In this document: piece by piece, positions 7,821 through 56,806 of the stretch | How positions within the stretch are numbered: position 1 is the stretch's first letter | How the letters are laid out: each line of letters starts with the position of its first letter | The notes under the pieces: generated by a model | What the model saw: only the letters and a program-made list of their open reading frames with translations | Told to the model about the DNA's origin: nothing | Databases searched by the model: none | Assembly (NCBI GenBank): GCA_038891615.1 | Contig: JAWADY010000002.1 | Span: 64,994-128,993, forward strand | Source of the DNA: Candidatus Woesearchaeota archaeon | GTDB lineage: Archaea; Nanobdellota; Nanobdellia; Woesearchaeales; ARS49 | DNA length: 64,000 bases | Direction of reading: 5' to 3' | Translations under genes and position numbers: made by a program

Positions 7821-7821
7821 A

Positions 7822-12798: not shown

Positions 12799-12809
12799 GT
12801 GAATTTTCA

Positions 12810-13079: not shown

Positions 13080-13366
13080 GAATGGGCAAAATGAGCGGAA
13101 AAAAGGGTGCTGAAGCCATTTGGTACATAATCGCGCTTGTCATTGGGCTAATAGTTCTTGTTGTGCTGGTAGCATTATTTACAGGAAAGGTAAAGCTGTT
13201 TGGCAAGGCAGGAGAAGAAATCGAAAAAGGTGTTCGTGGAAATCTTTGTTTTGAGCAGGGTTTTTGTGAAGCGGGCACTGCTTGTCCTCCTGGTTCAACA
13301 GCAATCCCGCGCCCTGCTGCTGGCTGGACAGATTGCACAGGGATTTGTTGCAAGCAAGTTGGATAA
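13076..13366 (+). CDS. small 6-Cys prepilin-like protein (~96 aa), paralog 3
   Basis: Sequence is MRMGKMSGKKG/AEAIWYIIALVIGLIVLVVLVALFTGKVKLFG with a 6-Cys tail ending ...CTGICCKQVG. The start is chosen at the ATGA overlap (13076). The track start 13058 and the ATGs at 13082 and 13091 are alternatives. Confidence 0.7.
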   Translation: MRMGKMSGKKGAEAIWYIIALVIGLIVLVVLVALFTGKVKLFGKAGEEIEKGVRGNLCFEQGFCEAGTACPPGSTAIPRPAAGWTDCTGICCKQVG

Positions 13367-13398
13367 AGTTTTTATACGCAAGAGCCACTTGATTTTTT

Positions 13399-13512
13399 AT
13401 GCACAAAAGAGGCGTTGAAAAAAGCACTTTGTTATACCTCATCCTAATCCTTATCTTTCTTGCGCTTGCAGCCTATATTCTTGTGAGAATTGCTGGGAGG
13501 ATTTTTGGATGA
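13399..13512 (+). CDS. 37-aa mini prepilin-like ORF (not in the supplied track)
   Basis: My translation is MHKRG/VEKSTLLYLILILIFLALAAYILVRIAGRIFG*. The stop overlaps the next start (ATGA at 13509-13512), and the orientation and operon are the same. Confidence 0.5.
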   Translation: MHKRGVEKSTLLYLILILIFLALAAYILVRIAGRIFG

Positions 13513-14225: not shown

Positions 14226-15145
14226 AAAGGGCGCAAGTAACAACACAGACACTCTTGGTAGTGCTCGTGCTTTTACTCGTAGCAGCTGTCATCTTTATTT
14301 CTTTTCAGACAAGACTCTTTGGCTTAGCAGAAGCCAAAAGTGCAAAGGATGTTTGCAAAACTTCTGTCTATGCCAATGCGCTGCTTGGAAGAAGTGTTGG
14401 AATCTTTTCTTCGGATATAAAATGTCCAACTCAGTATCTTCAGATAGACAATAGTGATGTTGCACATGCAAAGTTTGAGATTGCAAAAGCTCTGTCAGAT
14501 TGTTGGGAACAATTTGGAGAAGGCAGGCTTGAGCTTTTTTCTGGAGAAGGTGTTTTTTGTTCCGTATGTCATTTGATAACTTTTAAGCACAAAGAAAAAG
14601 CAATAAGCGGGCTTTTAGACTATCTTGCAACTAACAAAAAACCCCTTACTGACAAAAGCTATCTTGATTATCTAACAAGCTATCACACTTCAGGAAGCGA
14701 GGTTCTTAAGGCATATGCAGCTGAAAAGCTCCCGCCTGACATTCTTGACCCATCGCGAGGCAACACCTATGCAACAATCTTCTACTATGTCAAGGGTAAA
14801 GACCATGTGAAGGATGTTATTGAAAGAGCCCAAGCAGCAGCACCTGGCATTGGGCTTGAAGCACTTGGTATCGGATTGATAAAGGCAGGCAGTGCAACAG
14901 CTGGCTTGATTTCAGCAACCGGCATTGGTGCGCCTCTAGGTGTAGTTGTTGCAAAGGTCTCAACAATTGTCGGCGGAGTTTTGATTGTTGGCGGAGCAGG
15001 CTATGCCCTCCTCGCTGGTTGGTTCGGCGGAGTCCCTGTAGAATTCCTCTCACAAGTACGCCTCGAGCCTTACAACGAGCAAACGCTTAAAAACCTCGGA
15101 TGCCAAATCCTGCCTGCAGCTGAAAAAGCAGAGGTTGGAAGGTGA
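14222..15145 (+). CDS. prepilin-like protein, ~307 aa (paralog b) with a Gly-rich hydrophobic C-terminal region
   Basis: The start is taken at the ATGA overlap (14222): MKRAQ/VTTQTLLVVLVLLLVAAVIFISF. It carries the motif ...LSDCWEQFGEGRLELF...FCSVCHLITF. The C-terminal segment is GIGLEALGIGLIKAGSATAGLISATGIGAPLGVVVAKVSTIVGGVLIVGGAGYALLAGWFGG. Confidence 0.7.
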   Translation: MKRAQVTTQTLLVVLVLLLVAAVIFISFQTRLFGLAEAKSAKDVCKTSVYANALLGRSVGIFSSDIKCPTQYLQIDNSDVAHAKFEIAKALSDCWEQFGEGRLELFSGEGVFCSVCHLITFKHKEKAISGLLDYLATNKKPLTDKSYLDYLTSYHTSGSEVLKAYAAEKLPPDILDPSRGNTYATIFYYVKGKDHVKDVIERAQAAAPGIGLEALGIGLIKAGSATAGLISATGIGAPLGVVVAKVSTIVGGVLIVGGAGYALLAGWFGGVPVEFLSQVRLEPYNEQTLKNLGCQILPAAEKAEVGR

Positions 15146-15279
15146 TGAAAAAAGGCATATCCCGCGAGGCATTTGTTTACATACTCTTGGCACTTATTGC
15201 AATCCTCATTGGAGTAATCTTGATAATTTTTTGGGGAGGCGGGGCAGAAAAGGTCCTTAAGTCTCTTGGTTTGGGATAG
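15145..15279 (+). CDS. 44-aa mini prepilin-like ORF (not in the supplied track)
   Basis: My translation is MKKG/ISREAFVYILLALIAILIGVILIIFWGGGAEKVLKSLGLG*. The start overlaps the upstream stop by 1 nt (TGATG). Confidence 0.5.
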   Translation: MKKGISREAFVYILLALIAILIGVILIIFWGGGAEKVLKSLGLG

Positions 15280-15284
15280 CTCAA

Positions 15285-15641
15285 ATGGACAAAAAAGCTG
15301 TTGCAATAGAAACAATAGTCATCCTTCTCCTTGCACTTGTTGCTCTCCTTTTCTTTACAGTCCTTGGAGGAAAGCAGCTTCAATTGGGCAAGAAAATAAG
15401 CTTTTTCATGCCGGGCTGCCCAAAGGGTGTTTTAATAACCACAGAATGTCCATGTGATGGCCAAAAGATAAGTTCAGGTTATTGCTGTGATTTTGGACCA
15501 AGCCAAAAGCCTTGCTTTTGCGTAGAGCGAAATGTTAATAAGTGCGAGGATTACAAAAAGCAAGAGGATTGTGTAAGCAATCCTTGCCAAGTTCAAACTG
15601 CTTGCACCTTTGAACAAGGTGTTTGCAAAAGGGCTGGTTAA
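15285..15641 (+). CDS. Cys-rich prepilin-like protein, 118 aa (12 Cys)
   Basis: N-terminus is MDKKA/VAIETIVILLLALVALLFFTVLGG. The tail is CPKGVLITTECPCDGQKISSGYCCDFG... Confidence 0.7.
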   Translation: MDKKAVAIETIVILLLALVALLFFTVLGGKQLQLGKKISFFMPGCPKGVLITTECPCDGQKISSGYCCDFGPSQKPCFCVERNVNKCEDYKKQEDCVSNPCQVQTACTFEQGVCKRAG

Positions 15642-15645
15642 ATAA

Positions 15646-16071
15646 ATGGCAAAAAAAGGGGTAAGTGGAATACAGGTCGTCATAGCACTTTTGATTGGCA
15701 TCATAGTGCTCTATGTTGTTGTGGCTTTTATGCAAGCACAGTTCAAGAAGGCTGGAAAGAGTATCGAGGAAATAACTCCTTCCACAATCAGCTTTGCGCT
15801 GCAAGGCTGCAGGCTCCAAGCCGCACGAGGTTTTTCTGATGCAGATAAGGATGGATATCCCGACTTTTGTGATGTCTGCGAAGGCGGTGATGACGGAAAG
15901 CACAGCGATGCTGACTGGGTTCCAGATGATTGTGATGCGCATGAAAAAACAAAAGGGCTTCCTGCAAAGGAATGTGGTTGTGAAAAGCCAGAAATGGATT
16001 CTGAAGGCAGGCTGATAAAGAGCTGTGGGAGGCTTCTTTCAATCGAGCCATTTAAGTGCGCGAAAAAATGA
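15646..16071 (+). CDS. prepilin-like protein, 141 aa, with an acidic D-rich/Cys segment
   Basis: N-terminus is MAKKG/VSGIQVVIALLIGIIVLYVVVAF. The segment DADKDGYPDFCDVCEGGDDGKHSDADWVPDDCD looks like a Ca-binding site. Confidence 0.7.
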   Translation: MAKKGVSGIQVVIALLIGIIVLYVVVAFMQAQFKKAGKSIEEITPSTISFALQGCRLQAARGFSDADKDGYPDFCDVCEGGDDGKHSDADWVPDDCDAHEKTKGLPAKECGCEKPEMDSEGRLIKSCGRLLSIEPFKCAKK

Positions 16072-16088
16072 ATTTGGTAAAATGAAAA

Positions 16089-16949
16089 ATGAGCAAAAGG
16101 AAAGGCCAGGAAGAAGTTGGAAGGATGCTTTGGGAACTTGTTGCGCTGATACTGGCAGTAACTGTTATCATTGGAGGGATATTGTTTTTTGGAAGGGCAT
16201 TTGGATTTATTGGTGAGAGCAAAGAGGAACAGGACACAATCTCAAGCTTTTACAGCCTTGCAACAAAACTAAACGAACTGGCGCTGCTTTCAGAGTCATT
16301 CGTTCATGACAGGCTACCACTTTTTATTGGGGAAGGATTTGTAATTGTTGGCTTTGACAAAGCTGGAGATATTTCTGTCAATGGTTGCAGCGATGAAACA
16401 CATCTTGGAGTTCCAGCTACTGACCTCATCCCAAAGCCAGAGTTCTGTGGCGAGTTTGCTTGCATATGCCTCTATTCTGGCATTAGCGAAGAAGTCGGCG
16501 AGAAGCAGCCAATTTCTTGTGCCAAAATTTTCGCTGACAGATTGATTGGCTTGAGTAGTGCGTATCTTGAAAAAAACTATCCCTCTTTTGAGTCTTTTTG
16601 GAAAAACGCAATGGGCTCTCGTAGGGATAAGCCAGAACTACAAAGGTTCATGGTAACAGGGACAGAGCCTTTTAGCACTCTTCTCGAAAAAGACTATCCT
16701 CTTTTCCCAAGCTTTGAAAGCTACCCCTATACCTATTTTGTTCTTCATGGTGAGTGTGAAAACTGGTGGTTTGATGCCAACTTTGGCACACAAAGCCTCT
16801 ATCTTGAAAAAGTGAGGATAAAAGACAGGAACTATTTATTTATCACCGCAGACATCGAGGACTTTGTAAACAAAAGGGTTGCTGCAATAAAGGATTGGCT
16901 AGAGAAGCAAAAGAGTCAAGAGAAAGCCGAGGGAGGGCTGGTTGGTTGA
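16089..16949 (+). CDS. prepilin-like protein, 286 aa
   Basis: N-terminus is MSKRKGQ/EEVGRMLWELVALILAVTVIIGGILFF. Confidence 0.65.
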   Translation: MSKRKGQEEVGRMLWELVALILAVTVIIGGILFFGRAFGFIGESKEEQDTISSFYSLATKLNELALLSESFVHDRLPLFIGEGFVIVGFDKAGDISVNGCSDETHLGVPATDLIPKPEFCGEFACICLYSGISEEVGEKQPISCAKIFADRLIGLSSAYLEKNYPSFESFWKNAMGSRRDKPELQRFMVTGTEPFSTLLEKDYPLFPSFESYPYTYFVLHGECENWWFDANFGTQSLYLEKVRIKDRNYLFITADIEDFVNKRVAAIKDWLEKQKSQEKAEGGLVG

Positions 16950-17784
16950 AATGGTTGTGATTGGCAAGCGAGCCGTTGTTCATCCAGTTGCTCTGACAAT
17001 TGCAGAGCTTATTTTAGCCGCAATTATTGTCCTTGCAATGTACAATTTTGCCTCAAGGGCAAGAGAGCCTGGAAGGCTTGAAAAAGAGTTTGTTGCAAAA
17101 GACCTTGGCTTGCTGCTTGACGCCGTTTCCGTTGGCCAAGGGAGTTACTATTTGGTTTACACATCACCAGCCCTTCATCAAGATTTCAAGATTTCTGCAG
17201 GCGCCCACGAGGTTGTTGTTGATGGCTCAAGGCAGCCCTACGCATCTGGGCGTATAGAAATAAAAGGAGATTCCTTTGGAACAGATAAACTTGTGATCTG
17301 GTCTGAAACTGGAATTCTTGGCACGCCTTCAGCAGTCAAAGGTCACCTGCTACAGCTTCCTTGCGAAAGCCCACTGTCTTTTTCAACTGATAGGCAGCTT
17401 GCGGTAGCTGCTGATGATGGTGCCAAACAACTTGTTGAAAGACTTTTTGTCAAGGACTTAGGGAAAAGGCTGTTGTCAAATGATGAGAAAGGCGCAAGTG
17501 CGCTATTAAAAATTTTCACAGGAACAAAAAATGGGACAGCGAAGGCATATTTTTGGAAGGATGATAAGTCAGCAAGGTCGCTTGCATGCGCCCTTTTGAA
17601 CAGCATTGTCGCTTTTGAAGGAACCAATTCAGCCCTTCTTCTTCCGCTTAATCCTGAGCTTGCACCAAAGCGTTTTGCAGAGCTTGAGAAACAAAAGCCA
17701 GCTGTCTTCCTCGAGCTAGGCCCAGACCTTATTTCAAGCCCTGAACTTGCTCAGGCACTTTATGGTGGTGTTCGAAGTGGCTGA
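16942..17784 (+). CDS. prepilin-like protein, ~277-280 aa
   Basis: N-terminus is (MVE)MVVIGKRA/VVHPVALTIAELILAAIIVLAM. The track start is TTG at 16942; the ATG at 16951 lies 1 nt after the upstream TGA. Confidence 0.6.
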   Translation: MVEMVVIGKRAVVHPVALTIAELILAAIIVLAMYNFASRAREPGRLEKEFVAKDLGLLLDAVSVGQGSYYLVYTSPALHQDFKISAGAHEVVVDGSRQPYASGRIEIKGDSFGTDKLVIWSETGILGTPSAVKGHLLQLPCESPLSFSTDRQLAVAADDGAKQLVERLFVKDLGKRLLSNDEKGASALLKIFTGTKNGTAKAYFWKDDKSARSLACALLNSIVAFEGTNSALLLPLNPELAPKRFAELEKQKPAVFLELGPDLISSPELAQALYGGVRSG

Positions 17785-18325
17785 AAGGCAACAAGCAAAC
17801 ATTTTTAGCAAAAAGGCTCAACTCCTTAGCCATCACACAAAATTTCTTTTCATAAGCCTTCCATTTGTTATTATCTCCGCTCTTGCGTTGTTTCTTCTCG
17901 CAAACAGGTTTCTTGAAATAAGAGTAAATACCTTTCCCCTCGAGGCAAACGCATTTGTTGAAAGCATACTCTACTCATCTGCTGGGCTGGCTTATGTTGA
18001 CAATGTAACCGGGATTACCTATTCTGGAATCATAGACATCACAAAACTTGAAGAAAAGGACATTGGAAAAAGGTTGTCTAAGGCTTTTAACTATGGTGAA
18101 GGGCAAAGTTACCTTGCAGCAAAGCTTCTGATTGGTGATAGGACAATTTTCTATAACAACGAACCAGAAGCACCTTGGTATGACCGCTGGAAACCAAAGG
18201 TTGGGCTCAAGGGTGCTGGCGGAGTGCAATCGGTTACTTTTGTTAAATATGTGCTCATCAAAAATGGAAGTATGTTAGAACCTGCAACCGTTTACATAGA
18301 GTTGCTCAAGCCTGGTGAGGGCTAA
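17747..18325 (+). CDS. prepilin-like protein, ~180-192 aa (start uncertain)
   Basis: N-terminus is ...IFSKKAQ/LLSHHTKFLFISLPFVIISALALFLLA. Candidate starts are 17747, ATG 17762 and GTG 17777, and all overlap the upstream gene end (17784). Confidence 0.55.
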   Translation: MLRHFMVVFEVAERQQANIFSKKAQLLSHHTKFLFISLPFVIISALALFLLANRFLEIRVNTFPLEANAFVESILYSSAGLAYVDNVTGITYSGIIDITKLEEKDIGKRLSKAFNYGEGQSYLAAKLLIGDRTIFYNNEPEAPWYDRWKPKVGLKGAGGVQSVTFVKYVLIKNGSMLEPATVYIELLKPGEG

Positions 18326-18900
18326 TGGTAATAAATGGAAGAAAAGGCGTTGTTGGGGAGCTATTAGTTGCATTTCTCTCTTTTGCAGGCCTTGCTCTTA
18401 CAATCCTACTCTTCACTTTCATATTCTCTCCAGCAGACTTTCCTGGTCCTCAAACTTTGACCGTGCTTAATGAAGGAGAAACAGATGGCAAACTTAGACT
18501 GCTGACCATTCTTCGCTCACCAGTTGTTTTTGATGGGGAGAAAATAGATTTTGCAGACATGATTGCACTTTGGCAAGGAAAGCAAGAGCCGCTCGAAAGC
18601 ATTCTTCACTCAGAGCTTGAAAAGCTGCTTAATAACAAGCTAAGTTATGAGTTCGAGCATGCTGGTGTCAAATTTGTGCGCACTTATGCTTTTGCCATTT
18701 ATAGCATAAAAGACGATTTAAGTCGTGGCAAAGAACTAATGAAAGTAGAGGCAAGCGGCTATTCAGGAGGTAAAGAAATAGCCTCAACTCATGTTGCATT
18801 AAAGGATGGCAATGTGCTTGAGGTTGTGCTATTTTCAAGCGCGCAAAAAAAGCCATCCAAAACTCCTGTTTCGAGCGCTTCATCCATACCTATAAAATAA
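18325..18900 (+). CDS. prepilin-like protein, 191 aa
   Basis: N-terminus is MVINGRKG/VVGELLVAFLSFAGLALTILLFTFIF. There is a TAATG start/stop overlap at 18323-18327. Confidence 0.65.
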   Translation: MVINGRKGVVGELLVAFLSFAGLALTILLFTFIFSPADFPGPQTLTVLNEGETDGKLRLLTILRSPVVFDGEKIDFADMIALWQGKQEPLESILHSELEKLLNNKLSYEFEHAGVKFVRTYAFAIYSIKDDLSRGKELMKVEASGYSGGKEIASTHVALKDGNVLEVVLFSSAQKKPSKTPVSSASSIPIK

Positions 18901-18901
18901 A

Positions 18902-19870
18902 ATGGTCAAATCAAACAAACGCGCAACAATCTTTTTTGAACCACTAATACTTTTGGGGTTAATCGTTGCTCTTAGCATCGCAGCTATTTCTGTTAGCCAA
19001 AAAAGGTCCTCTTTTGGAACAATTGGCAGACCAGCTGCTGACCTTCTTAATTACAATGACTTTGGTGAAGAACTTCTTTTTAAGGTTGAACAAGCAGCGA
19101 GGTTTGCAGTTCGCGATGCGCTTTATGAGTTGGGTGCAAATGGTTGGAGTGCTGAAGGTCCAAACTTAGGTTGTGATAGCCAGCCAATTGGCAAGCCTTT
19201 GCTTATCGAGAGCTTTCCTACACCACAGGAGATTGTTGAAGAACTAACAAAAATTTCTGATAGGAAGCTTAGGGCTTATTCGCTCAGGGCTTCGCAGCTC
19301 CTTGGTCTTGGGAGGTTGGGCTTCCACTTGCCAACAGGTATTGAATATGAGTGGTTTGTTGAGCACTCTGGTGGGCTGTTGAGAGTGAGTGGCATTGCTG
19401 ACAAGCCAGTTACCTTCTCATTTAGCTCATACGAGGTAGGTAAACCAACACTCTACGGCCAGCCGCTGCCACTGCCAACTGCTTCAGTTGTTTTTATTCC
19501 TCTTGAACGTCCAAAACAGCCAGAAGCCCTGCTCTTGCTTTATGGCAATTATTCGATAAGGCCGTCCTTCACAGTCTGGATAGATTACGACCTTTTCGGC
19601 GTCTATGAAAGAATAAAAGAAGGCGTTGAGCAACTCAAAACAATCATTCAGGAAAACAGGGCTCTTGGTTTTGAGGTGACAGACCTGGCGCTCAAAAACA
19701 AAGTCAAGGAGCTGAATTCTGCGCAGGGAGAGCTTGTTTGGCAAGTCCCTAAGAGGACAAGTGAAGATCCGGCTATCTACTCTTTTGTTATTTCTCATAA
19801 GAAGCAGCTTTTAGGATGCAGTCAGCCTATTCAAATAAGGTTTGCGATGAGAATTCCATTAGCTGCTTGA
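18902..19870 (+). CDS. prepilin-like protein, 322 aa; last gene of the operon
   Basis: N-terminus is MVKSNKRA/TIFFEPLILLGLIVALSIAAISV. The start lies 1 nt after the upstream stop. Confidence 0.65.
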   Translation: MVKSNKRATIFFEPLILLGLIVALSIAAISVSQKRSSFGTIGRPAADLLNYNDFGEELLFKVEQAARFAVRDALYELGANGWSAEGPNLGCDSQPIGKPLLIESFPTPQEIVEELTKISDRKLRAYSLRASQLLGLGRLGFHLPTGIEYEWFVEHSGGLLRVSGIADKPVTFSFSSYEVGKPTLYGQPLPLPTASVVFIPLERPKQPEALLLLYGNYSIRPSFTVWIDYDLFGVYERIKEGVEQLKTIIQENRALGFEVTDLALKNKVKELNSAQGELVWQVPKRTSEDPAIYSFVISHKKQLLGCSQPIQIRFAMRIPLAA

Positions 19871-38264: not shown

Positions 38265-40454
38265 TTAGCCAAATCTAAGGGTTGCTGCCATTATTCTTAG
38301 GGCAATAAAGTTGAAAAGCAGAATCACAAATAGTGCAACGATGGTGTAAAGTGCTGTGCTTCTTATAAGATTCCTTCCAAGCACATAACGCTCGCCAAGC
38401 TTGTCAGCGCCGTTTTCTATGCCGTTTGCAAGGATAGTGAGTATTGCAATAATTTCAACAACATAGATGCCAACAACGAGCTGGAAATAATAAGTCGGTA
38501 TACCATCGCCAAGCAAGCTTGCAATTGAACTAAGCTTTTCTCCAACATCAGGAGTCTGGAGCTTTGAGAATTGGTGTGACAATGCGCCAATGATTGTTGT
38601 TATCATTGATGTTATCCCAATAACTATCCCTGCGATGGTGGGTGCAAGGAAGTTTATTTGTGATTTCATGTCTGCAATTATGTCAGCCATAAGGTCCTTT
38701 AGACGCTCATTAACCCTGTGTATCTCTTTTATGTACCTAGAGACATTCATGAGTGCTTGAGCAGCTATCTTTGGACCTTTCTTTATGCTTTCAACAAGCA
38801 CCTTCATTGAACTTTCCACTACTGCGCTCGGGAAGTATGTTAGTGCACCAATCCGTGGATGAAATATTGCGTCTCTCAATCCAAGTCCAAGCTTTCTTAT
38901 GTTCGTGGAGATGACGGCAAAGAAATTTCCTGAAACAGTTTCTCCCATAACCTCCGCAACGTTACCAACTGCCATTTCGGCAGGAATTCCATCACCAAGT
39001 CTATTTCCAAGTTGGAAAAGGGCAGATGCAAACTCTTCTTCAAGCCTTTTTGTTCGTTCTCTTATTTTTATCACATTGCTGCTTCTCATCCTAAAGTATA
39101 TGCCAAACCCTAACCCAAGCGCAAGTGGGAAAAGAAGAGATATGACAGAAGCACCAAGCCCATAAGGTCCGAGCTTTTTACCTACCAACCTTATCGAATC
39201 CCTGTATTCGAGAAGGCAGATAAGTCTTTTACATGTTGTTGTTTCTGTTTCAGCACCAAAACCCATATCAAATTCTGGTGAAAAGGCGTGAATAAGTAGC
39301 GGTGACATTGCGCCGATGAAGAGAACGCCTGCTATAACTACTGCTACAATTGCGGGATTAATTGTAAGTTCTGTTCTTCCAATCTTCAAAATAATGTTTT
39401 TGTACCTTTTCAGCTCTGGATTTATTTCTGAGATGTCGACATCTCCATATCCAGTTGGCCTTGTTGAAAGAATGTTTGTGCCCAGATGATAAACTCCAAG
39501 TGGCAGCAGTATGTTGTACAGAATGGCAACGTGATACCACTTTACTCCTTCGATAAAGCTTACAAGGAGAGGGAGTATAACAAGTCCAAGAACTGGAAGG
39601 ATTATTCCTAACATATGAAGGGTTGTTATTGGGCTCTTAAGATTATGGGCATAGTGCAGCATCTTTTCATAAGTCTCCTCAAGAATAACATCGAGGCTTT
39701 TGTCAAGGAGAGCCAGTCTTGCCTCTTCAGTAGGCTCGTAAAGCGAACCTTCAATAAGATGGAATGCTTCTACAAACTCTCTGTTCCAGTTTTTCCAGCC
39801 TTCAAGATAAACATCAAGGCTTTCCTTTACTGTATCATAAATTCCTGATTCTACATTCCACAAGACTTTCTTAAGGTCTAGAGAAAGAGGAGGCGCAAGG
39901 TGTTCTGAAGCAAATTGCAATGCAAGCTCGAGGTTCGAGGTATGCCGCATGTAGGTAACAACATAGAAAATGCATAGCACCATCTGATTTGATGCACGCA
40001 TTCTCCAGGTATTCGCAATTGTATATGGAAGATTTCCGAGAAGTGGAAAAAGCAGTATGCCAACAATAGTGCTCAGCATCGCGAAGAAGAACGAACCAAG
40101 AAGTATTGATATTAAAATTCCAAAAAGCATAACTGCAAGCGGTGCAACCGTTGAAAAGGCAACAGCCTCTTCAGGCCTTATTTCAAGGTGTGCAGTCTCG
40201 ATAGCCTCTTTTAGCTTCTCAAGCCTTTCTGTTTTGAGCCTAAGTCTTATCAGCTTTCCAGAGAACCTGCAGAGCTTTTCATAAAATGTCAGAGGTCTGG
40301 GAAACATTTCCTCCTTAAATTCCCTATACTCTCTTGTGATTATCCTTCTTGGAATTTGAGGAGGGCTCTGACCTAACTCCTGCTCAAGTCTTTCTTTGTA
40401 TTTTTGAACGAGAGACTTAACTTCTTCTTTTGCTCCTGGAGAGAGGTTGTTCAC
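38265..40454 (-). CDS. FlaJ/PilC/TadC-family polytopic membrane platform protein of a type IV filament system
   Basis: This 729-aa multi-TM protein has two cytoplasmic helical domains and lies immediately downstream of the ATPase. The GTG start is preceded by GAGGTGG. The stop abuts tRNA-Phe. Confidence 0.75.
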   Translation of the reverse strand: MNNLSPGAKEEVKSLVQKYKERLEQELGQSPPQIPRRIITREYREFKEEMFPRPLTFYEKLCRFSGKLIRLRLKTERLEKLKEAIETAHLEIRPEEAVAFSTVAPLAVMLFGILISILLGSFFFAMLSTIVGILLFPLLGNLPYTIANTWRMRASNQMVLCIFYVVTYMRHTSNLELALQFASEHLAPPLSLDLKKVLWNVESGIYDTVKESLDVYLEGWKNWNREFVEAFHLIEGSLYEPTEEARLALLDKSLDVILEETYEKMLHYAHNLKSPITTLHMLGIILPVLGLVILPLLVSFIEGVKWYHVAILYNILLPLGVYHLGTNILSTRPTGYGDVDISEINPELKRYKNIILKIGRTELTINPAIVAVVIAGVLFIGAMSPLLIHAFSPEFDMGFGAETETTTCKRLICLLEYRDSIRLVGKKLGPYGLGASVISLLFPLALGLGFGIYFRMRSSNVIKIRERTKRLEEEFASALFQLGNRLGDGIPAEMAVGNVAEVMGETVSGNFFAVISTNIRKLGLGLRDAIFHPRIGALTYFPSAVVESSMKVLVESIKKGPKIAAQALMNVSRYIKEIHRVNERLKDLMADIIADMKSQINFLAPTIAGIVIGITSMITTIIGALSHQFSKLQTPDVGEKLSSIASLLGDGIPTYYFQLVVGIYVVEIIAILTILANGIENGADKLGERYVLGRNLIRSTALYTIVALFVILLFNFIALRIMAATLRFG

Positions 40455-40482
40455 TAGTCCACCTCTTTTTGCAATTTAGCCC

Positions 40483-42753
40483 TTATCCAATCGCGAATTC
40501 CTTTTTAATACTCCTCTTGAGCCACTCATTCCATTCGAAAAATATTCTTTCTGTATCAAGCCTTCCAACTTCCTCAAGTATCTTATCCGAGATGTTGTGG
40601 AAGGCATCATTTGCAGTTATAACAAACTTTGCCTCAAGAATGTCTGGTCTTTTGAGAGCTCTGGCTGTCTCAACCAGCGTTTCTTTGATTCTTGCTCTTA
40701 AGTTTATGTTCTCCCACACTGCATCCCAGTTGCCAGCCCATTCTTTTACATTTGAAGCAATTGCCTTTAGCACATCGCTGTCGCCAGCAAGAAGGTCTTG
40801 TGTTGGCTGCAGCGTGTCTGTGCGCACATCGTATCTCATCAAATCAACGAAACCTTTCTCTGCAAGAGGGTCTTCTTCCCAAAACTTTCTTACTTCTGTG
40901 ATTTGGGTTATCCTTCTCCACCTATGCAGGCCATCTGGACTTCTTATCGGATTTGCCACAACAATGAGATCTGTCGCCTTAAAGGATGTTCTTGGAACAC
41001 CAAGGTCATTAACAACTCTATCAAAGACACCGTACGGGCTGTCGCCGTGAATCGTTCCAGCAACGACATTTGCGAGGGCACCAACTCTCATTGCTTCGTA
41101 GAGCGCGCGAGCCTCAACAGACCTTACTTCTCCTATGATAAGGCTGCTGTCTCCCAGCCTAAGTGTTGTACGCAAGCCTTCTTCTGCAGGCACTTCTGTT
41201 GTTCCACGGGTCAATGCGCTGGCTACCTTCATAGATTGAATGTTGTAGCCAAGCTCGCGCAGAGAGCTAACTGGTAACTCAAGTGTATCTTCTATGGTCA
41301 ATACTCTTATCCTGCGCATTATCTCTGTCATAAGCGATGCCAGAAAAGATGTTTTTCCTGCAGATCTTGTACCTGCGATTAGCATTGTTCGCGCGCCATC
41401 GATGCAAAAGCTCAGAATGCCTGCGCCAAGAGGGCTAATCATTCTGTTTTCTATGAAAAGTGGAAGAGTCCATGGCTTGTCGCGATGCCTCCTGAAGCTA
41501 TACGCAATACCTGTTGGGTTCAATGGAGCTGTTATTGCCGCAATCCTTGCACGCGCTCTTGGTATAATAAGTTCTGTATCAAGAATTGGATTTGCCTCAT
41601 CAAAAGGCCTATTCGAGAGAAGTCTCAGCTTTGAGGCCCAGCTTTCAGCCTCGCTTGCTGTTGGCACAATGTTTGTCATGCAGTCAGCATAATCAGCCTG
41701 TACAACAAATATTGGAATCCTGCCCATGGGACTGTTAACCGAGATATCCTGTATTTTTTCATCCTGAAGAAGAACTTCAACAAGTCCAAAGCCAACTGTG
41801 TACCTCACTAGGATGTTTGCAAGCTCCTGCAGTTCTTTTTCTCGAAGTTTCAGGCCGCGATACTCCGCAAGTTCCTCAAGAAGGTCAGAACCAATCCGCT
41901 CAAAAACCTGCCTCATACGCTCCGGGTCTACGAACTCTGAGCGTTTTGGCTTGTGTTCTACGATAATATTTCTCGCAGAATCAAGGAGCTCATACTTCTC
42001 CTCACTAAGCTTGAATTCTGGAGGAATAATATGATAAAGGTATTGTACCGTGTTCGGTAGGGAAAAGATGTTGACTTCTGTTCCATTTACAATGTAGCTC
42101 TCAAGCAGCTCTGCATCCGGCGGAAAGCTTGACATTAGTTTGGTAAACATAAAGTCTGGCTTTATTGTCGGCGAAAATATTCTTCTATAAATGTCCCTCT
42201 CGCCAACCTTGTATCCTGCTAATTGCTCTTTTGCAAGCTTGATGAGTGTTGTTTGTTGGAGTAAGCCAAGTGCGTCCTCCACTGCCTTAAGATAGCGCTG
42301 CAGGCACCTCTGGCCTTCGGGAGAGGCATGCTTAAGATATTCTCTTTCTCGTCTTGCAATGCGCTCCAGCTCAACATAAGCTCCCACAGGATCGCTTTTT
42401 AGCATTGTATGTAGGATTGACTGCAGCTCTGTGTATCTCCTTGTTAACCATTTCAAGCACGTCATATCAGATAAGAAGCCATACGCCAATCTTCTGCGTA
42501 GCAGCTCCTTGTACGCAATTGCTATCTCATTAAGTATTGCTGTTTGAGTGCCATCATATTCATAATCGCGCTTTTGCACAAAAACAATTCTTGTAACTGT
42601 GCCAACCTCTGCAAGAATGTCAATTGTCATTGACATTGTTTTTGGAGAATCTTCAATTGAGGGAAAAAATGTGCAGGCCTCTGCATCTATTCTAAGAATT
42701 ATCTCCTCACCTTCTCTTATAATCTCGTAGCTGAAACAACCTCTATCAGGCAT
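40483..42753 (-). CDS. FlaI/PilB/VirB11-family type IV filament assembly ATPase with an enlarged N-terminal region (~756 aa)
   Basis: Motifs are Walker A IAGTRSAGKTSFL, Walker B/Asp box RVLTIEDTLEL and His box VAGTIHGDSP. The start is set to the ATG at 42753, preceded by GAGGTGGGAGG; the track start at 42780 is a TTG. Confidence 0.85.
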   Translation of the reverse strand: MPDRGCFSYEIIREGEEIILRIDAEACTFFPSIEDSPKTMSMTIDILAEVGTVTRIVFVQKRDYEYDGTQTAILNEIAIAYKELLRRRLAYGFLSDMTCLKWLTRRYTELQSILHTMLKSDPVGAYVELERIARREREYLKHASPEGQRCLQRYLKAVEDALGLLQQTTLIKLAKEQLAGYKVGERDIYRRIFSPTIKPDFMFTKLMSSFPPDAELLESYIVNGTEVNIFSLPNTVQYLYHIIPPEFKLSEEKYELLDSARNIIVEHKPKRSEFVDPERMRQVFERIGSDLLEELAEYRGLKLREKELQELANILVRYTVGFGLVEVLLQDEKIQDISVNSPMGRIPIFVVQADYADCMTNIVPTASEAESWASKLRLLSNRPFDEANPILDTELIIPRARARIAAITAPLNPTGIAYSFRRHRDKPWTLPLFIENRMISPLGAGILSFCIDGARTMLIAGTRSAGKTSFLASLMTEIMRRIRVLTIEDTLELPVSSLRELGYNIQSMKVASALTRGTTEVPAEEGLRTTLRLGDSSLIIGEVRSVEARALYEAMRVGALANVVAGTIHGDSPYGVFDRVVNDLGVPRTSFKATDLIVVANPIRSPDGLHRWRRITQITEVRKFWEEDPLAEKGFVDLMRYDVRTDTLQPTQDLLAGDSDVLKAIASNVKEWAGNWDAVWENINLRARIKETLVETARALKRPDILEAKFVITANDAFHNISDKILEEVGRLDTERIFFEWNEWLKRSIKKEFAIG

Positions 42754-42867
42754 GTGAAGTCCTCCCACCTCTTTGAGCAAAGGTTTTTAGCACTTTGACA
42801 TGGTTACACAATTTATTATCCTGCTAAGCAAAACCTTATTAAAGCAAATTTATAAGCTTTTGCAAAA

Positions 42868-43368
42868 ATGCCTGAAGAACTGCTGCCGCCGATAGGAACT
42901 AATATCGCGCCTGAACCCGCAAGCCAAGCTACAGAGCCATCCCAACAGCCAAAGCGCCTTTTCAAGTCAAAAATGCCAGAAACGACAGAGCTTTCATCGC
43001 TGCGTGAGGAACTTCTATCACTCAGCACCCGTCTAAGAGTGTCCGAAGAGCGCTATGTTGACTTTCGAAGAAAGCTTCAACTTCTAGAGCAAAACCTTCT
43101 TTCAAACCACAAACGGGTAATGGAAGAAATAAAGCTCCTGCTCTCAGAAACAACAGAGCTAAAAAAGAAGATTGATGAGATTGAAAACAAACTCCTTCTT
43201 ATTGTAAAGGAATTACAACTCACAGCAAAAAGAGAAGATGTGGAAGTAATGAAAAAGTATTTTGAACTTTGGAGCCCAGTTAGTTTTGCAACAATTTCTC
43301 AGGTTGAGAAAATGATTGCAGAAGCGCTACAGGAACGGCAAGGAGATGCCGAAGAAGAAAAGACATGA
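42868..43368 (+). CDS. coiled-coil protein, 166 aa, divergent from the ATPase gene
   Basis: Heptad-rich sequence (LREELLSLSTRLRVSEERYVDFRRKLQLLEQNLL...IDEIENKLLLIVKELQL). No enzymatic motifs. Confidence 0.6.
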   Translation: MPEELLPPIGTNIAPEPASQATEPSQQPKRLFKSKMPETTELSSLREELLSLSTRLRVSEERYVDFRRKLQLLEQNLLSNHKRVMEEIKLLLSETTELKKKIDEIENKLLLIVKELQLTAKREDVEVMKKYFELWSPVSFATISQVEKMIAEALQERQGDAEEEKT

Positions 43369-43470: not shown

Positions 43471-44184
43471 ATGCCTTTGTTCGGCCTTTTTGGTAAAAAA
43501 AAGGAAACCCCTCCTTCGCCTTTTGAAGGGCTTAAGCAAGAGCTTGCACCTCCCCTTGTTCAACGAGTCATTTCGCTTCAGCAACAAGGCCTTTCAAACA
43601 GCCAAATCATCGAGGCTCTCCAAAGAGAGGGCTTTGCTCTTGACAAAATTGTGGAAGCATTGAATCAAGCCGCTGCACCTCCGCCTGCTGGGCCCATTCC
43701 TACGGAGATGCCACAAGCCCCTCCACCAACTCCACCGTCAGAGCTTCCTCAAGCTCCTCAACCAGTGCCTGCACCGCCTGCAATGTATCCTGCTGAATAT
43801 CCTGAATATACCTATCCAGCTTACCCAGCCTATCCTGCTGAAGAAATACTTTCCCGAGAGAATGTTGAGGCAATTGCTGAGTCGATAGTTGAGGAGCGTT
43901 GGAAGGAGGCTACAAAAGAGCTTACAAAGTTGAGTGAATGGAAGGAAGCTTCAACAAGAAGACTTGACAAGCTTGAGCAGTCTCTTACGGACCTTAAAGC
44001 TGACATTGATAACCTTCACAAAGCACTCGTTGCAAAAATAAGCGAATACGACAAGAGTCTCATTGATGTTGGCGTAGAACTTAAGGCGATGGAAAAGGTT
44101 TTTCAGAAAGTGCTTCCAAGCCTAACAGAATCTGTTTCAGAACTATCACGAATTACGCAGCGGGTAAAAAAGGCAAAGAAGTAA
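43471..44184 (+). CDS. coiled-coil protein, 237 aa, with an N-terminal amphipathic peptide and a Pro-rich linker
   Basis: The N-terminus is MPLFGLFGKKKE. A small helical module (GLSNSQIIEALQREGFALDKIVEALNQA) is followed by a P-rich spacer and a C-terminal coiled coil (...EYDKSLIDVGVELKAMEKVFQKVLPSL). Confidence 0.6.
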   Translation: MPLFGLFGKKKETPPSPFEGLKQELAPPLVQRVISLQQQGLSNSQIIEALQREGFALDKIVEALNQAAAPPPAGPIPTEMPQAPPPTPPSELPQAPQPVPAPPAMYPAEYPEYTYPAYPAYPAEEILSRENVEAIAESIVEERWKEATKELTKLSEWKEASTRRLDKLEQSLTDLKADIDNLHKALVAKISEYDKSLIDVGVELKAMEKVFQKVLPSLTESVSELSRITQRVKKAKK

Positions 44185-52739: not shown

Positions 52740-53374
52740 TTTTTCCGTCCTCTGCTTCTGCCTTTGAGCCTGAGCTTCAATGCAAGGTCTTCAAGTTTTT
52801 CCAGCCCATATTTCAGGCTATCAAACTTTTTTCTTAAAGGTTGGTTTCTAAAATCAAATAGGGTCAGTTGTTCATGAATCCCTTCAACAAATGCCTTTAT
52901 CTCAAGCGCAGACCTTTCATTGCCTTTTATCACAGAATTTATGGCTTTTCGCACAAGCTCGCCCACCATATCACAAAGTCCTAGAAGATATATATCTATG
53001 TCAACGCCAAGTTCTTTGGGAGAGAAAAGTCGCTTCTCACTCGCCCAGCCATAGTAGCAGGAAGCCTCAACATACTCTTCCAGAGCCTCTGCATAAGCAC
53101 CAATCATTGCAAGATGTTTGTCACCCTTTACAAGGCTTTCTGCCTCTTTTATTCTGCTTTTTGCAACCCTTAGTGCAGCTGCTGCCGAAGCGAGGTCTTC
53201 TCTATGAAGTGCATAAATTGCCTTTTTGCTTTCCTTTAGAATATCTCTTGATTTCTTTATAAGCTCTTCGCGGGCATAATCAAAAGCCTCTAGCTTCTGC
53301 CTCATGAGCTCAAAAGTCTTTTTGTCAATCATTACTGTAGTTTGTGAGCGCAGCCCTTTTAAATCTATTGCCAC
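52736..53374 (-). CDS. translin-family nucleic-acid-binding protein
   Basis: This helical protein carries YLLGLCDMVGELVRKA (the translin signature region). The start is GTG, and the stop overlaps the aspS start by 4 nt. Confidence 0.75.
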   Translation of the reverse strand: MAIDLKGLRSQTTVMIDKKTFELMRQKLEAFDYAREELIKKSRDILKESKKAIYALHREDLASAAAALRVAKSRIKEAESLVKGDKHLAMIGAYAEALEEYVEASCYYGWASEKRLFSPKELGVDIDIYLLGLCDMVGELVRKAINSVIKGNERSALEIKAFVEGIHEQLTLFDFRNQPLRKKFDSLKYGLEKLEDLALKLRLKGRSRGRKK

Positions 53375-53399
53375 GCACTGCTCTGAAACAAAGAAAAGG

Positions 53400-53407
53400 T
53401 TTATATA
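53400..53407. promoter_or_regulatory. TATA box (TTTATATA), possibly bidirectional (translin gene leftward, six-gene operon rightward)
   Basis: It lies 26-33 nt from the GTG at 53374 on the minus strand and 45-52 nt upstream of the ATG at 53452. AGAGAGGT at 53433-53440 is a candidate SD site. Confidence 0.45.
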
Positions 53408-53451
53408 CTCTCATTCTTCAAAAAAGCAAAAAAGAGAGGTTAAAAAACCTG

Positions 53452-54003
53452 ATGGCCGCGACTGTTCTTGGAAATGTCATTGAGTTTTTTAATAGAATAG
53501 GAATTTACGATGTCGTGCTACCCTTTCTTCTCGTTTTCACAATTGTTTTTGCAATCTTTGAGAGAACAAAGGTTCTTGGAACAGAAAAGATTGATGGGGA
53601 AGTTGTTACAAAAAAGAACCTTAATGCAATGGCTGCCTTTGTAATTGCATTTTTTGTAGTAGCTTCAGGCCAGGTTGTGGAGACAATCACAAAGGTTTCT
53701 GCAAACATGGTTGTTCTTCTCTTTCTTGTGATATTCTTCCTAATGCTTGTTGGCACACTTTACAAAGAAGGAGAATTTGTTGAAAAGGGACTTGAAGGCT
53801 GGCCAAGAAATGTCTTTATTATAGTTCTTACCCTTGGAATCATTCTTGTTTTCCTAGACGGAATAAAAGCAGCTGACGGTCGGAGTTGGTTACAGGTTGC
53901 AACAGATTACCTTCAGCTGAACTGGTCCTCACCTGCTGTTGCCTCAGTAGTGCTCATCCTTCTCGTCATATTCATAATAAACTGGCTAACAAAGGGTAAG
54001 TAG
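53452..54003 (+). CDS. polytopic membrane protein, paralog M1 of an unrecognised family
   Basis: It has 4-5 TMs. The N-terminal motif is IGIYDVVLPFLLVFTIVFAIFERTKVLG. The start is set to the ATG after the SD site. Confidence 0.7.
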   Translation: MAATVLGNVIEFFNRIGIYDVVLPFLLVFTIVFAIFERTKVLGTEKIDGEVVTKKNLNAMAAFVIAFFVVASGQVVETITKVSANMVVLLFLVIFFLMLVGTLYKEGEFVEKGLEGWPRNVFIIVLTLGIILVFLDGIKAADGRSWLQVATDYLQLNWSSPAVASVVLILLVIFIINWLTKGK

Positions 54004-54579
54004 GTGATGCAAATGATTTTTCGGCTTCAATTTGGGCCTTATGGCATAGGTTTTAGGGACCTTTTTTATAGACTGCAGGTTTTGGGCGTGTTTGATGTTC
54101 TGATACCTTTTGTTCTAATCTTCACCATTCTTTATGCAGTCCTTCAGAAAGTAGGAGTGTTCAAAGAGAAGAAGTTCAATATTCTCATCTCGCTTGCAAT
54201 AGCTCTTCTCGTAGTTGTCCCTCATGTTGTTGGAGGCTATCCTGCTGGCTTTGATGTAGTTGAAATCATAAACCGCTCGCTCCCGCAAATAGCCTTCCTC
54301 CTCATAGCTTTTGTTCTTTTTCTCATAATGGTTGGGCTTGTCTGGAAGCCACAGAAGGGAACGGAACTTGTGTTTCAAGGGGCTCTTGTTCCAATCATTG
54401 TTGCGCTTATTCTCTTTTTCATCTTTAGCAGTGCGATTTATCAGCAAGCCATTCCGAACTGGCTTTGGTGGATTCTTGATCCAACCTTGCAGATGTTCGT
54501 TGTGATTTTGCTGATATTCGGGCTTGTTGTGTGGTTTGTGACAAGCGGAGCAAAGGAAGAAAAAGAGGGAAAAGATTAA
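54004..54579 (+). CDS. polytopic membrane protein, paralog M2
   Basis: The motif is LGVFDVLIPFVLIFTILYAVLQKVGVF. Candidate starts are GTG 54004, ATG 54007 and ATG 54013. Confidence 0.7.
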   Translation: MMQMIFRLQFGPYGIGFRDLFYRLQVLGVFDVLIPFVLIFTILYAVLQKVGVFKEKKFNILISLAIALLVVVPHVVGGYPAGFDVVEIINRSLPQIAFLLIAFVLFLIMVGLVWKPQKGTELVFQGALVPIIVALILFFIFSSAIYQQAIPNWLWWILDPTLQMFVVILLIFGLVVWFVTSGAKEEKEGKD

Positions 54580-54594
54580 AAGAGCTAGTGAAAT

Positions 54595-55158
54595 ATGGCA
54601 ACCCTGCTTGACCTAGGCCTTGTGAGAACTTTTGACGCCCTGTTTCCTTTCCTTTTTGTCTTTGTTGTTGTTTATGGCGTCCTAAGCTACACAAAACTTC
54701 TTGGCGAGAACAAAAGTGTACATGCAATAATTGCATTTATACTTGCCATAGCCGCCCTATTCTCCCGCATTGCTCTAAAGACAATAACCCTCATGGCCCC
54801 ATGGTTCGTTATTCTTTTTGTTTTCGCGATATTTGCAATAATGACTTATCAGCTCTTTGGTGTTAAAGAGGAAGAGATATCTGGACTTTGGAAAAAGTGG
54901 ACAGCTGGTGGTAGCACCATCTTCTATTGGTTATTGGCACTCATACTTATGATAGGACTTGGCTCGTTGTTCACTGTCCTGCGCGAAGAAAGGGCACCAC
55001 CTTTTTTCATCCAAAATGCCACTGTTACTCCAGGCATTCCAGAAGCCCGGATTAGCTTTTGGTCAACAGTATTCCATCCAAAAGTTCTTGGAGCCGCACT
55101 TCTTTTCTTGATAGCATTGTTCGCCATAAAGAGCCTCACAGAGCTTCCAAAGAAATAA
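54595..55158 (+). CDS. polytopic membrane protein, paralog M3
   Basis: The motif is VRTFDALFPFLFVFVVVYGVLSYTKLLG. Confidence 0.7.
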   Translation: MATLLDLGLVRTFDALFPFLFVFVVVYGVLSYTKLLGENKSVHAIIAFILAIAALFSRIALKTITLMAPWFVILFVFAIFAIMTYQLFGVKEEEISGLWKKWTAGGSTIFYWLLALILMIGLGSLFTVLREERAPPFFIQNATVTPGIPEARISFWSTVFHPKVLGAALLFLIALFAIKSLTELPKK

Positions 55159-55167
55159 CCTTAAATT

Positions 55168-55779
55168 GTGAAAATGGTAGAAATAATAGATCGGTATTCT
55201 CGTTTTGGCAAAAATCTCTTAAAAATCACAAGTTTTGTATTGGGCTACAAGGATGTTTTTTCTTTAGAAAAACTAATCACTCTTATTCACGAGTGGCTCG
55301 TTGAGGAAGGCTATGCAACACGGGATGATGAGAAGTTTGGTGAGGTGTTTTATTTGCAAAAGGACAACCCTGTTGCAGGCAATGAGTACTGGATTCGTTG
55401 GAGGCTTGAGAAAACCCCCTTTCAAACAAAGCTTTGGAAATATCTTCTTGATATCGATATACACGTTCTTGGATTAAAAAAAGTTGAGCTTGTTGCCGGA
55501 GGGAAAAAGCTTGAAGCAGATAAGGGAAAGGTTGAGATTGCTGCAGACTTTGGCTTACTTCTTGACCCACAAAATTTGCTTGAGGCTCCGGTTATTAAAC
55601 CATTTAAAATGCTTGTGCTAAAGGGCTTTCTTAAGGCGCAGTTTTCAAAGCACAAAGAAGCAGTCTTCACTGATGCTCAAAGGCTTCAAGATATGTTAAA
55701 ATCCTATCTCCGTCTTGAGACCTACTTGACTGAAAAAGGGCTTCCGGAATTCCTTGGCAAAAGGCCGGAGGCAAGATAA
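55168..55779 (+). CDS. soluble hypothetical protein, paralog S1 of an unrecognised family
   Basis: Shared pattern: ...LITLIHEWLVEEGY...YWIRWRLEK...LDIDIHVLGLKKVELV...GKVEIAADFGLLLD... Confidence 0.65.
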   Translation: MKMVEIIDRYSRFGKNLLKITSFVLGYKDVFSLEKLITLIHEWLVEEGYATRDDEKFGEVFYLQKDNPVAGNEYWIRWRLEKTPFQTKLWKYLLDIDIHVLGLKKVELVAGGKKLEADKGKVEIAADFGLLLDPQNLLEAPVIKPFKMLVLKGFLKAQFSKHKEAVFTDAQRLQDMLKSYLRLETYLTEKGLPEFLGKRPEAR

Positions 55780-56280
55780 ATGGTAGTGAAGATAGACATA
55801 CCAGTTTCAATTATACGCTATGCTGGGCTTTTTCAAAAGGAAAAACTGCTTAGAACAGTTCGTGGCTGGCTTCTTTCAGAGCGCTATCTCTTTAGTGAGC
55901 CAAAGCATAAGTACAGCAGCTCTCCAACTGGTGCAACATTAGAGGTGCGGTTTGAAGGCGATAGAAAGGTAACAAGCTATGTGCGCTTCAAAATTGTTGT
56001 AGATATTCTGATTAATGAAATGAAGGATGTACAAGTTGTCAAGGATGGCATTCAAACAGTCCTTCAAGAAGGAAAAATACTTATCGAAACAAAGGGCACT
56101 TTGGAATTGGATTGGCAAAATCGTTTTGGAGGTTCAAAATTTCTTCAGGGCTTACACGACTTTTATCTAAAGTACATAATAAAGAAAAAAATTGATGAAG
56201 TATGGTGGGGAGCTCTTTATTCCAAAATATTTAAATTGAACTCAGTCATTAGAGAAGCAATAGGCTTTGAAACAGTCTGA
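55780..56280 (+). CDS. soluble hypothetical protein, paralog S2
   Basis: Shared pattern: ...LLRTVRGWLLSERY...EPKHKY...LEVRFEGDRKVTSYVRFKIVVDILINEMKDVQVV...GKILIETKGTLELDWQNRF... The start abuts the S1 stop. Confidence 0.65.
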   Translation: MVVKIDIPVSIIRYAGLFQKEKLLRTVRGWLLSERYLFSEPKHKYSSSPTGATLEVRFEGDRKVTSYVRFKIVVDILINEMKDVQVVKDGIQTVLQEGKILIETKGTLELDWQNRFGGSKFLQGLHDFYLKYIIKKKIDEVWWGALYSKIFKLNSVIREAIGFETV

Positions 56281-56290
56281 GGTCGCTCTG

Positions 56291-56806
56291 ATGCCAGAAC
56301 GCGAGACAATTGTTGACAAAGAACGGTTAGAGTATGAAGGACCATTTGAGCTTTCTGCTTTTTATCAGCTTCTCCAGAGCACAATTGCTGAGCTTGGTTA
56401 TGGCGTAAGGGAAAGAAAGCATTCCGAAGCGGTTTCGAAGGAAGGAAAGCTAATCTATCTTGAGCTAGAGTGTAGAAAGGTGCTATCAGAGGACTATGCT
56501 AGAGCTCTTATTCTGCTAAATGTTCAGCTTATAAATGTCAAAGACATCGTTGTTGAGGGCAAAAAATATCAGACAGGAAAGATTAGCATTGTTCTTGATG
56601 GCATCCTTGAAACAGACTATGAAGGAAGATGGGAGGAAAAGCCGCTTCTTCTCTTTCTCAGGACTCTTTATGACAAATTTATTTTTAAAACAATAACTGG
56701 TGGATACGATAGAATAATCCGAGAAGATGCAAATAGGCTGAAAGACATTGTCAGTGCATTCTTTAACATTTCTGCCTTTAGGGTGCCTCAACGTGCCTCT
56801 GCCTAA
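56291..56806 (+). CDS. soluble hypothetical protein, paralog S3
   Basis: Shared pattern: ...LLQSTIAELGY...ERKHSE...LELECRKVLSEDYARALILLNVQLINVKDIVV...GKISIVLDGILETDYEGRW... The ATG at 56291 is preceded by GAGGT; the track start at 56267 is a TTG. Confidence 0.65.
   Translation: MPERETIVDKERLEYEGPFELSAFYQLLQSTIAELGYGVRERKHSEAVSKEGKLIYLELECRKVLSEDYARALILLNVQLINVKDIVVEGKKYQTGKISIVLDGILETDYEGRWEEKPLLLFLRTLYDKFIFKTITGGYDRIIREDANRLKDIVSAFFNISAFRVPQRASA

Follow-up and report, generated by a model that had tools for sequence, protein, structure and literature searches.

Uncultivated, genome-reduced DPANN archaea such as Woesearchaeota presumably live attached to a host, and the foremost candidates for the means of attachment are type IV pilus-like filaments. 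The closest described systems are ATPase/TadC modules that act on pilins in trans, as PilB3C3 of Haloferax volcanii does with PilA1-6 (PMC4858521). Lineage-specific extra N- and C-terminal domains occur in such modules, for example in PilB4; the archaeal peptidase gene usually lies outside the locus, and some genomes, two nanoarchaea included, have no recognisable peptidase (PMC4858521). Variable N-terminal domains of the ATPase track the type IV filament (TFF) subsystem, and System 2 combines an ATPase extended at its N-terminus with a single platform gene, many pilins and large adhesins (Sivabalasarma and Albers, preprint, 10.64898/2026.04.22.720090). Here we analyse a 64,000-nt stretch of a metagenome-assembled genome (MAG) of a Woesearchaeota archaeon, called the window below. 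It carries a two-gene operon for a secretion ATPase and a highly diverged platform protein, which is likely the core motor of an archaeal type IV pilus-like filament assembly machine. The parts of the operon are as follows.

40483-42753, minus strand: secretion ATPase (PilT/VirB11 superfamily, TadA/GspE2-like), 756 aa; from the open reading frame (ORF), Pfam T2SSE, PDB matches and an identical database protein.
40879-41433, minus strand: ATPase core, residues 441-625, containing all four motifs of the motif scan; the best-conserved segment, at 84% identity.
42049-42753, minus strand: lineage-specific N-terminal extension of the ATPase, residues 1-235, comprising a small alpha/beta unit at 8-86, a helical bundle at 97-177 and a linker.
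38265-40454, minus strand: platform protein, highly diverged TadC/FlaJ/PilC-type (T2SSF), 729 aa, with about nine transmembrane (TM) helices and two cytoplasmic helical bundles.
39159-39467, minus strand: platform residues 330-432, a beta-rich insertion (~100 aa) between the two halves, from the secondary structure of the model.
40455-40482, minus strand: 28-nt intergenic spacer, the operon junction, read from the sequence.
42754-42867, no strand: divergent intergenic region with the ATPase Shine-Dalgarno and a TATA-like element, read from the sequence.

A preliminary description of the window had a ~756-aa ATPase starting at a Shine-Dalgarno-supported ATG (42753) and, 28 nt on, a 729-aa platform gene with GAGGTGG before its GTG; the sequence bears out all of this. 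The ATPase ORF is open from a TTG at 42780 (40483-42780, minus strand), the ATG at 42753 gives 756 aa, and the TAA stop occupies 40485-40483. The in-frame TTG is an unlikely start, because a 100% identical 756-aa protein is in the databases and 35 homologs align starting at M1. The ATPase Shine-Dalgarno, GAGGTGGGAGG (42771-42761), ends 7 nt before the ATG; that of the platform gene, GAGGTGG (40465-40459), lies 4 nt before the GTG at 40454, from which the ORF runs to 38265, and the same GAGGTGG precedes both genes. About 95 nt upstream of the ATPase ATG is an A/T-rich, TATA-like CTTATAAAT, which may act as the promoter. The two genes form a two-gene operon.

Walker A, Walker B, Asp-box and His-box motifs had been reported in the C-terminal half of the ATPase, and the motif scan found all four there: Walker A as G461TRSAGKT468, the Asp box as V484LTIEDTLE492, Walker B as L538IIGEVR544 with the catalytic Glu, and the His box as T567IH569. 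They are invariant across 36 homologs. Ahead of the RecA-like core is a canonical N-terminal domain homologous to that of A. fulgidus GspE2 (afGspE2) and FlaI. Pfam T2SSE (PF00437) matches residues 364-600 with 47.3 bits against a cut-off of 24.9. The closest solved structure is afGspE2 (PDB 2oap; E 5e-24, residues 237-619 against 53-417), the second-best is CpaF (E 1e-19), and FlaI is a weaker match than either (E 1e-10, residues 315-642 against 120-431). Among NCBIfam models the TadA family ranks first (E 9e-32, score 110 against a cut-off of 373), and the FlaI equivalog (NF058587), which aligns over residues 236-696 (E 7e-31), reaches 107.6 bits against a cut-off of 550. Because GspE2 and CpaF match better and the FlaI model stays far below its equivalog cut-off, we assign the protein to the PilT/VirB11-superfamily secretion ATPases of the archaeal GspE2/TadA type and not to archaellum FlaI. 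A type IV secretion (VirB11) assignment was rejected: the VirB11 and TrbB models score far below those of TadA and FlaI, and the neighbourhood has no VirB4 or VirD4.

In four homologs (P0036, P0053, P0088, P0119) an intein (Pfam Intein_splicing and LAGLIDADG_3) sits inside the Asp box, after TIED and before T/S-LELP. These intein-bearing orthologs are ~1250-1267 aa long, and the insertion point corresponds to residues 489/490 of the window ATPase, about 41284-41289. Free-standing LAGLIDADG-like ORFs lie just downstream of the platform gene in two related loci (L004 and L005).

The preliminary description gave the ATPase an extra N-terminal region of ~330 aa. The enlargement stands, at a smaller size: because alignment of the canonical N-terminal domain begins at about residue 236, opposite residues 50-53 of FlaI and afGspE, the truly extra part comes to about 185-235 aa. 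The contrast drawn with characterised ATPases was overstated as well, enlarged N-termini of archaeal TFF ATPases having been described already (PMC4858521; 10.64898/2026.04.22.720090). That the extra domain is specific to the lineage agrees with our searches, in which homologs of the extension were found only among Woesearchaeota/Nanoarchaeia fragments. Modelling of residues 1-260 from 30 natural N-terminal fragments gave a confident structure (predicted local distance difference test, pLDDT, 85.6) with a small beta-beta-alpha-beta-beta-alpha unit (8-86) followed by a helical bundle (97-177); structure comparison of the model gave no informative match to known folds. Identity declines from that of the core to 75% in the canonical N-terminal domain and 46-60% in the extension. 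This module of ~200 aa may be an interaction surface for lineage-specific partners.

The platform protein was placed through its relatives and its modelled fold. An exhaustive profile search gathered a family of 1256 clusters at 50% identity, and Pfam T2SSF (PF00482) matches 28 of 51 full-length relatives, which are 25-49% identical to the window protein (best E 3.2e-10). A broader profile of the family meets the EpsF cytoplasmic domain at the QLxxxLxxGxPxE motif typical of such domains (E 0.37). The AlphaFold model (pLDDT 80, predicted template modelling score 0.75) contains about nine TM helices together with two helical bundles on the cytoplasmic side, at about residues 141-280 and 455-600, each with flanking TM helices. 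In fold comparison it matches the cytoplasmic domains of EpsF (2vma/3c1q), PilC (2whn) and SpoIIIAB (6bs9) at 13-17% sequence identity, and the GspF-type helical-bundle fold is present; the window protein differs in having ~9 TM helices and a ~100-aa beta-rich insertion absent from bacterial GspF and PilC. Because distant relatives match T2SSF and the model matches these domains, we conclude from transitive homology and modelled fold that the 729-aa protein is a strongly diverged TadC/FlaJ/PilC-type platform. It had been called FlaJ/PilC-type beforehand, rightly, although the support comes by this route and not from direct sequence matches.

The protein is identical to the NCBI entry 'hypothetical protein QXU88_02205 [Candidatus Woesearchaeota archaeon]', and a few JGI annotations of the platform read 'TadB'. 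Identifying the 'hypothetical protein' downstream of the ATPase as the missing TadC-type platform corrects the annotation of thousands of database entries, and because Pfam does not see the platform, surveys based on profiles may record these genomes as having no complete system. The beta-rich insertion opens with the motif R332-P-T-G-Y-G337 / D340 (39435-39467, residues 330-340). All 40 close homologs share it without change, and in 51 distant members of the family R332 and P333 keep at least 90% conservation. We considered whether the GYGD of this motif marks a cryptic GxGD aspartyl (A24) peptidase and rejected it, finding no A24 match and no second catalytic Asp context.

The described system that the operon most resembles is euryarchaeal clade 2, or System 2, with H. 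volcanii PilB3-PilC3. Both have a two-gene unit of ATPase and single TadC-like platform with pilins in trans, an extended ATPase N-terminus, many minor pilins, large adhesin-like proteins and a peptidase outside the locus, and the window fits the System 2/clade 2 description, a likeness of features rather than a phylogenetic or arCOG placement. It differs in that its extension has no detectable homolog outside Woesearchaeota/Nanoarchaeia, its platform is invisible to Pfam T2SSF and its housekeeping synteny is conserved. With Archaeoglobus fulgidus GspE2 (PDB 2oap/2oaq) the window ATPase shares an alignable N-terminal domain and core with the same motifs, although identity is low and afGspE2, at 511 aa, lacks ~185 N-terminal residues and has a somewhat shorter C-terminus. 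The bacterial Tad motor CpaF/TadA is close by the PDB and NCBIfam rankings given above; however, Tad has two separate platform proteins (TadB/TadC), a secretin and Flp pilins, none of which is at the window locus. Archaeal platforms are TadC-like fusions of two repeats. The archaellum pair FlaI/FlaJ (S. acidocaldarius FlaI 4ihq/4ii7) belongs to the same superfamily, with an N-terminal domain, a RecA-like C-terminal domain and a polytopic two-repeat platform partner, but FlaI is a minimal form of 513 aa. Because the general design (motor in trans to the pilins, variable N-terminal domain, peptidase elsewhere) is already documented in archaea, our finding adds a lineage-specific member to the known archaeal type IV filament modules and no new principle.

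Full-length relatives of the ATPase occur in at least 579 GTDB species genomes, the best 80 at 63-70% identity, and database homologs number in the thousands at full length with ~70% identity. We counted synteny over 84 related loci, with denominators that vary by gene. The platform gene follows the ATPase gene on the same strand in 66 of 71. Median identity is 65% for the ATPase, 58% for the platform, 42% for glycyl-tRNA synthetase (GlyRS) and 39% for replication factor C (RFC), the ATPase figure being inflated by the choice of loci on ATPase similarity. By these comparisons the pair is near-universal and highly conserved in Woesearchaeales. It is surrounded by housekeeping genes: GlyRS, RFC, valyl-tRNA synthetase, translin, Asp/Asn-tRNA synthetase and an Obg-like GTPase.

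The families of both proteins, the intact catalytic motifs, the operon structure, the lineage-wide conservation and the finding of no archaellum genes are established. In the mechanism that we propose, the ATPase would form a hexamer, by analogy with afGspE2, FlaI and CpaF, and the cytoplasmic helical bundles of the 729-aa platform would be the docking site of this hexamer. Conformational changes driven by ATP would then raise processed pilins from the membrane into the base of a growing filament. Candidates for these pilins are encoded in two operons of the window.

875-8854, plus strand: operon A, in which four pilin-like ORFs (6352-8854) come after the gene of a 1826-aa adhesin-like protein with TSP3 and Ig-like repeats; from Pfam and N-termini.
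12544-19870, plus strand: operon B, 13 ORFs with class III-like N-termini; from the N-terminal pattern scan.

Pattern scanning thus counts 17 ORFs with class III-like N-termini, such as MSKGQGISINVIIIAAIALLVL, at 6352-8854 and 12544-19870. Pfam matches the 1826-aa protein with TSP3_bac (E 8e-21) and Big_13. Three small tandem genes at 12544-13366, for proteins of 84, 89 and about 91-102 aa, probably encode the major pilins; the class III signals of these proteins are of textbook form (MSKGQG..., MAKAQG...), and Cys residues occur at their C-termini. We regard it as reasonably probable that the substrates of the motor are these 17 or more class III-signal proteins with the adhesin operon, at 0.9-19.9 kb, encoded in trans. 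The end of the pilin operons (19870) is 18.4 kb from the end of the platform gene (38265), in agreement with the 18 kb first reported, and this separation is the rule in the lineage: among 43 related loci that span at least 15 kb, only one has a pilin cluster within 10 kb of the ATPase gene. In one locus, L084, an orthologous giant protein (2361 aa) and four pilins in the same order are convergent to the ATPase gene and beside it, which is one piece of independent support for the link between motor and pilins. The preliminary description took the pair as the probable motor for 18 prepilin-like proteins of the window; the pair does belong to the type IV filament assembly type and the L084 link agrees with that role, while our count of the proteins is 17. 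The prepilin peptidase is presumably encoded elsewhere in the genome.

Operon A continues upstream of the window, where the contig encodes a lipobox-like protein of 510 aa, class III-like proteins of 143 and 395 aa and secreted proteins of 734 and 340 aa (L087, 3375-17980); the first ORF of the window (3-881) is the C-terminus of the 395-aa protein. Between the two pilin operons (8857-12393) lie genes for a 656-aa Ser/Thr protein kinase, an AbrB/MazE-PhoU protein and an Lrp/AsnC regulator, which are possible regulators of pilin expression.

Several results weigh against our interpretation of the locus. The platform protein itself has no Pfam match at E<=10 and no NCBIfam match at E<=1, and neither the single protein nor a profile of close homologs found a match among PDB sequences. 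An alignment of its two halves by hhalign (E 6.7e-4, probability only 27%) gives a weak repeat signal. Pfam and family searches on the pilin-like ORFs returned no matches, leaving their pilin nature to N-terminal patterns alone, and the L084 adjacency comes from a single genome. No A24 prepilin peptidase was found among the window ORFs with at least three predicted TM segments, and no A24 family is on record among the called genes 10 kb beyond each window end. The ~84 kb examined are about a quarter of a 344-kb contig, and another ATPase/platform pair could exist.

The last point bears on the alternative that survives best, namely that the pair is a type IV filament-type motor, but not one for adhesive pili made from the window's pilin operons. 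It might instead build a short pseudopilus that serves to take up DNA or nutrients or to secrete proteins (competence-, bindosome- or type II secretion system-like), or assemble pilins from elsewhere, the window pilins being served by another pair. The distance of the pair from the pilins, its place among housekeeping genes and the 42 of 43 loci in which pilins are not adjacent all speak for this, as does an ARS106 MAG with two ATPase copies (L034, L037). The unusually high conservation of the ATPase, a figure biased by the choice of loci, also fits a core physiological role better than adhesion pili, which evolve fast. However, the orthologous adhesin/pilin operon adjoins the ATPase gene in L084. 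The window yielded no second T2SSE or T2SSF gene, and none is on record among the called genes of the 10-kb flanks. Near the pair we saw neither ABC-transporter binding proteins with class III signals nor ComEC-like competence genes, and there are known motors that act in trans on adhesive pilins (PMC4858521). We consider this alternative unlikely and prefer a motor for the pili of the window's own operons.

The neighbours of the operon include conserved genes that were not recognised by family searches.

42868-43368, plus strand: 166-aa coiled-coil protein with no TM segment, a conserved divergent neighbour and candidate accessory.
43471-44184, plus strand: protein of 237 aa composed of a small helical domain at the N-terminus, a Pro-rich linker and a coiled coil; a conserved neighbour and candidate accessory.
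53344-55158, plus strand: three tandem paralogous 5-TM proteins (219, 191 and 187 aa), here ~10 kb from the ATPase.

Of 72 related loci, 55 have the 166-aa gene upstream of the ATPase gene, 54 of them on the opposite strand, and the 237-aa gene is present in 48 of 67 (72-76% for the two genes); both stay beside the ATPase in two rearranged loci (L084 and L085). Searches of Pfam, NCBIfam and the PDB with these two proteins gave coiled-coil noise only, and no family or structural assignment. The 5-TM triplet, whose members are present in 34-39 of 53-61 loci, adjoins the cluster of ATPase and coiled-coil genes in most relatives (~64% of loci; e.g. L003, L004, L006). We considered whether the 5-TM proteins are a cryptic A24 peptidase and rejected it, since they have no A24 or other family match and no GxGD motif. 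The claim that the ATPase and platform genes are the only assembly genes of the window holds for recognised families; the coiled-coil and 5-TM neighbours could be unrecognised accessories, or may merely be syntenic. Synteny alone is weak evidence of a functional link, because housekeeping neighbours are conserved at similar frequency (GlyRS is syntenic in 26 of 40 loci). As conserved uncharacterised genes, these neighbours are candidates for accessory components.

The 237-aa protein carries QG..NNQII..LQRQGY in its N-terminal domain and a strongly conserved EYDK..DVGTEIKAMEKVFQKVLP segment. A G..D..LPFLL.F motif at the N-terminus is common to the 5-TM paralogs, and after the triplet come ORFs for three soluble proteins of 203, 166 and 179 aa with no known family (53344-56806 in all).

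These neighbours also enter a second alternative, in which the ATPase, the membrane protein and the two coiled-coil proteins form a non-filament machine, for membrane remodelling, cell division or a host-contact channel, that reuses the secretion-ATPase fold. It would suit the strong conservation of a locus in housekeeping synteny, a platform diverged beyond Pfam recognition with an invariant RPTGYGD motif in its beta-rich insertion, and coiled-coil genes that remain with the ATPase after rearrangement. Yet the platform family is tied to T2SSF by both sequence and fold, and to our knowledge all known pairs of T2SSE and T2SSF proteins assemble pilin-type filaments. Class III-signal proteins are abundant in the same region of the genome, and the neighbouring housekeeping genes are syntenic at similar frequencies, so that we find a non-filament machine very improbable. 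Finally, an archaellum motor (FlaI/FlaJ = ArlI/ArlJ) driving a rotating swimming filament, suggested by JGI annotations of some homologs as 'flagellar protein FlaI' and by the long alignment to the NCBIfam FlaI model, is effectively refuted by the equivalog score and the weaker match to FlaI (4ii7) reported above, by the minimal form of the archaellum ATPase, which has no extra domains (10.64898/2026.04.22.720090), and by finding no FlaH, FlaF, FlaG, FlaC/D/E or archaellin in the window, in its 10-kb flanks or in five Pfam-annotated orthologous loci. The preliminary description had likewise seen no archaellin, FlaF/G/H or A24 peptidase gene nearby, and it was correct for the window and for what is on record of the flanks.

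A type IV filament motor thus remains our interpretation of the pair, and a bolder version of it can be put forward as speculative and rather doubtful. The unique N-terminal module, the Pfam-invisible platform with its beta-rich insertion, two dedicated coiled-coil proteins encoded next to the ATPase and the three 5-TM paralogs would together make up a type IV filament subsystem that extends across Woesearchaeales and is so far undescribed. It would hold its place among housekeeping genes, under purifying selection stronger than that on the aminoacyl-tRNA synthetase beside it. If this were true, it would be an essential organelle of the episymbiotic lifestyle, for host contact or uptake, that model-based surveys have missed.

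Two further observations concern the genomes in which the pair occurs. The two ATPase copies of MAG ARS106, both full-length, are on NZDH01000013.1 (L034) and NZDH01000003.1 (L037); one has no platform gene within 10 kb, and the other has one ~7.5 kb from the ATPase start, not directly downstream. The duplication could be real paralogy or strain heterogeneity. The Woesearchaeota-type pair is also found in many MAG records titled 'uncultured Methanosarcinales archaeon', 'Armatimonadota bacterium' or 'Candidatus Binatia bacterium' (L008, L009, L022, L040 and others; P0009, P0170), which are probably mislabelled or contaminated bins.

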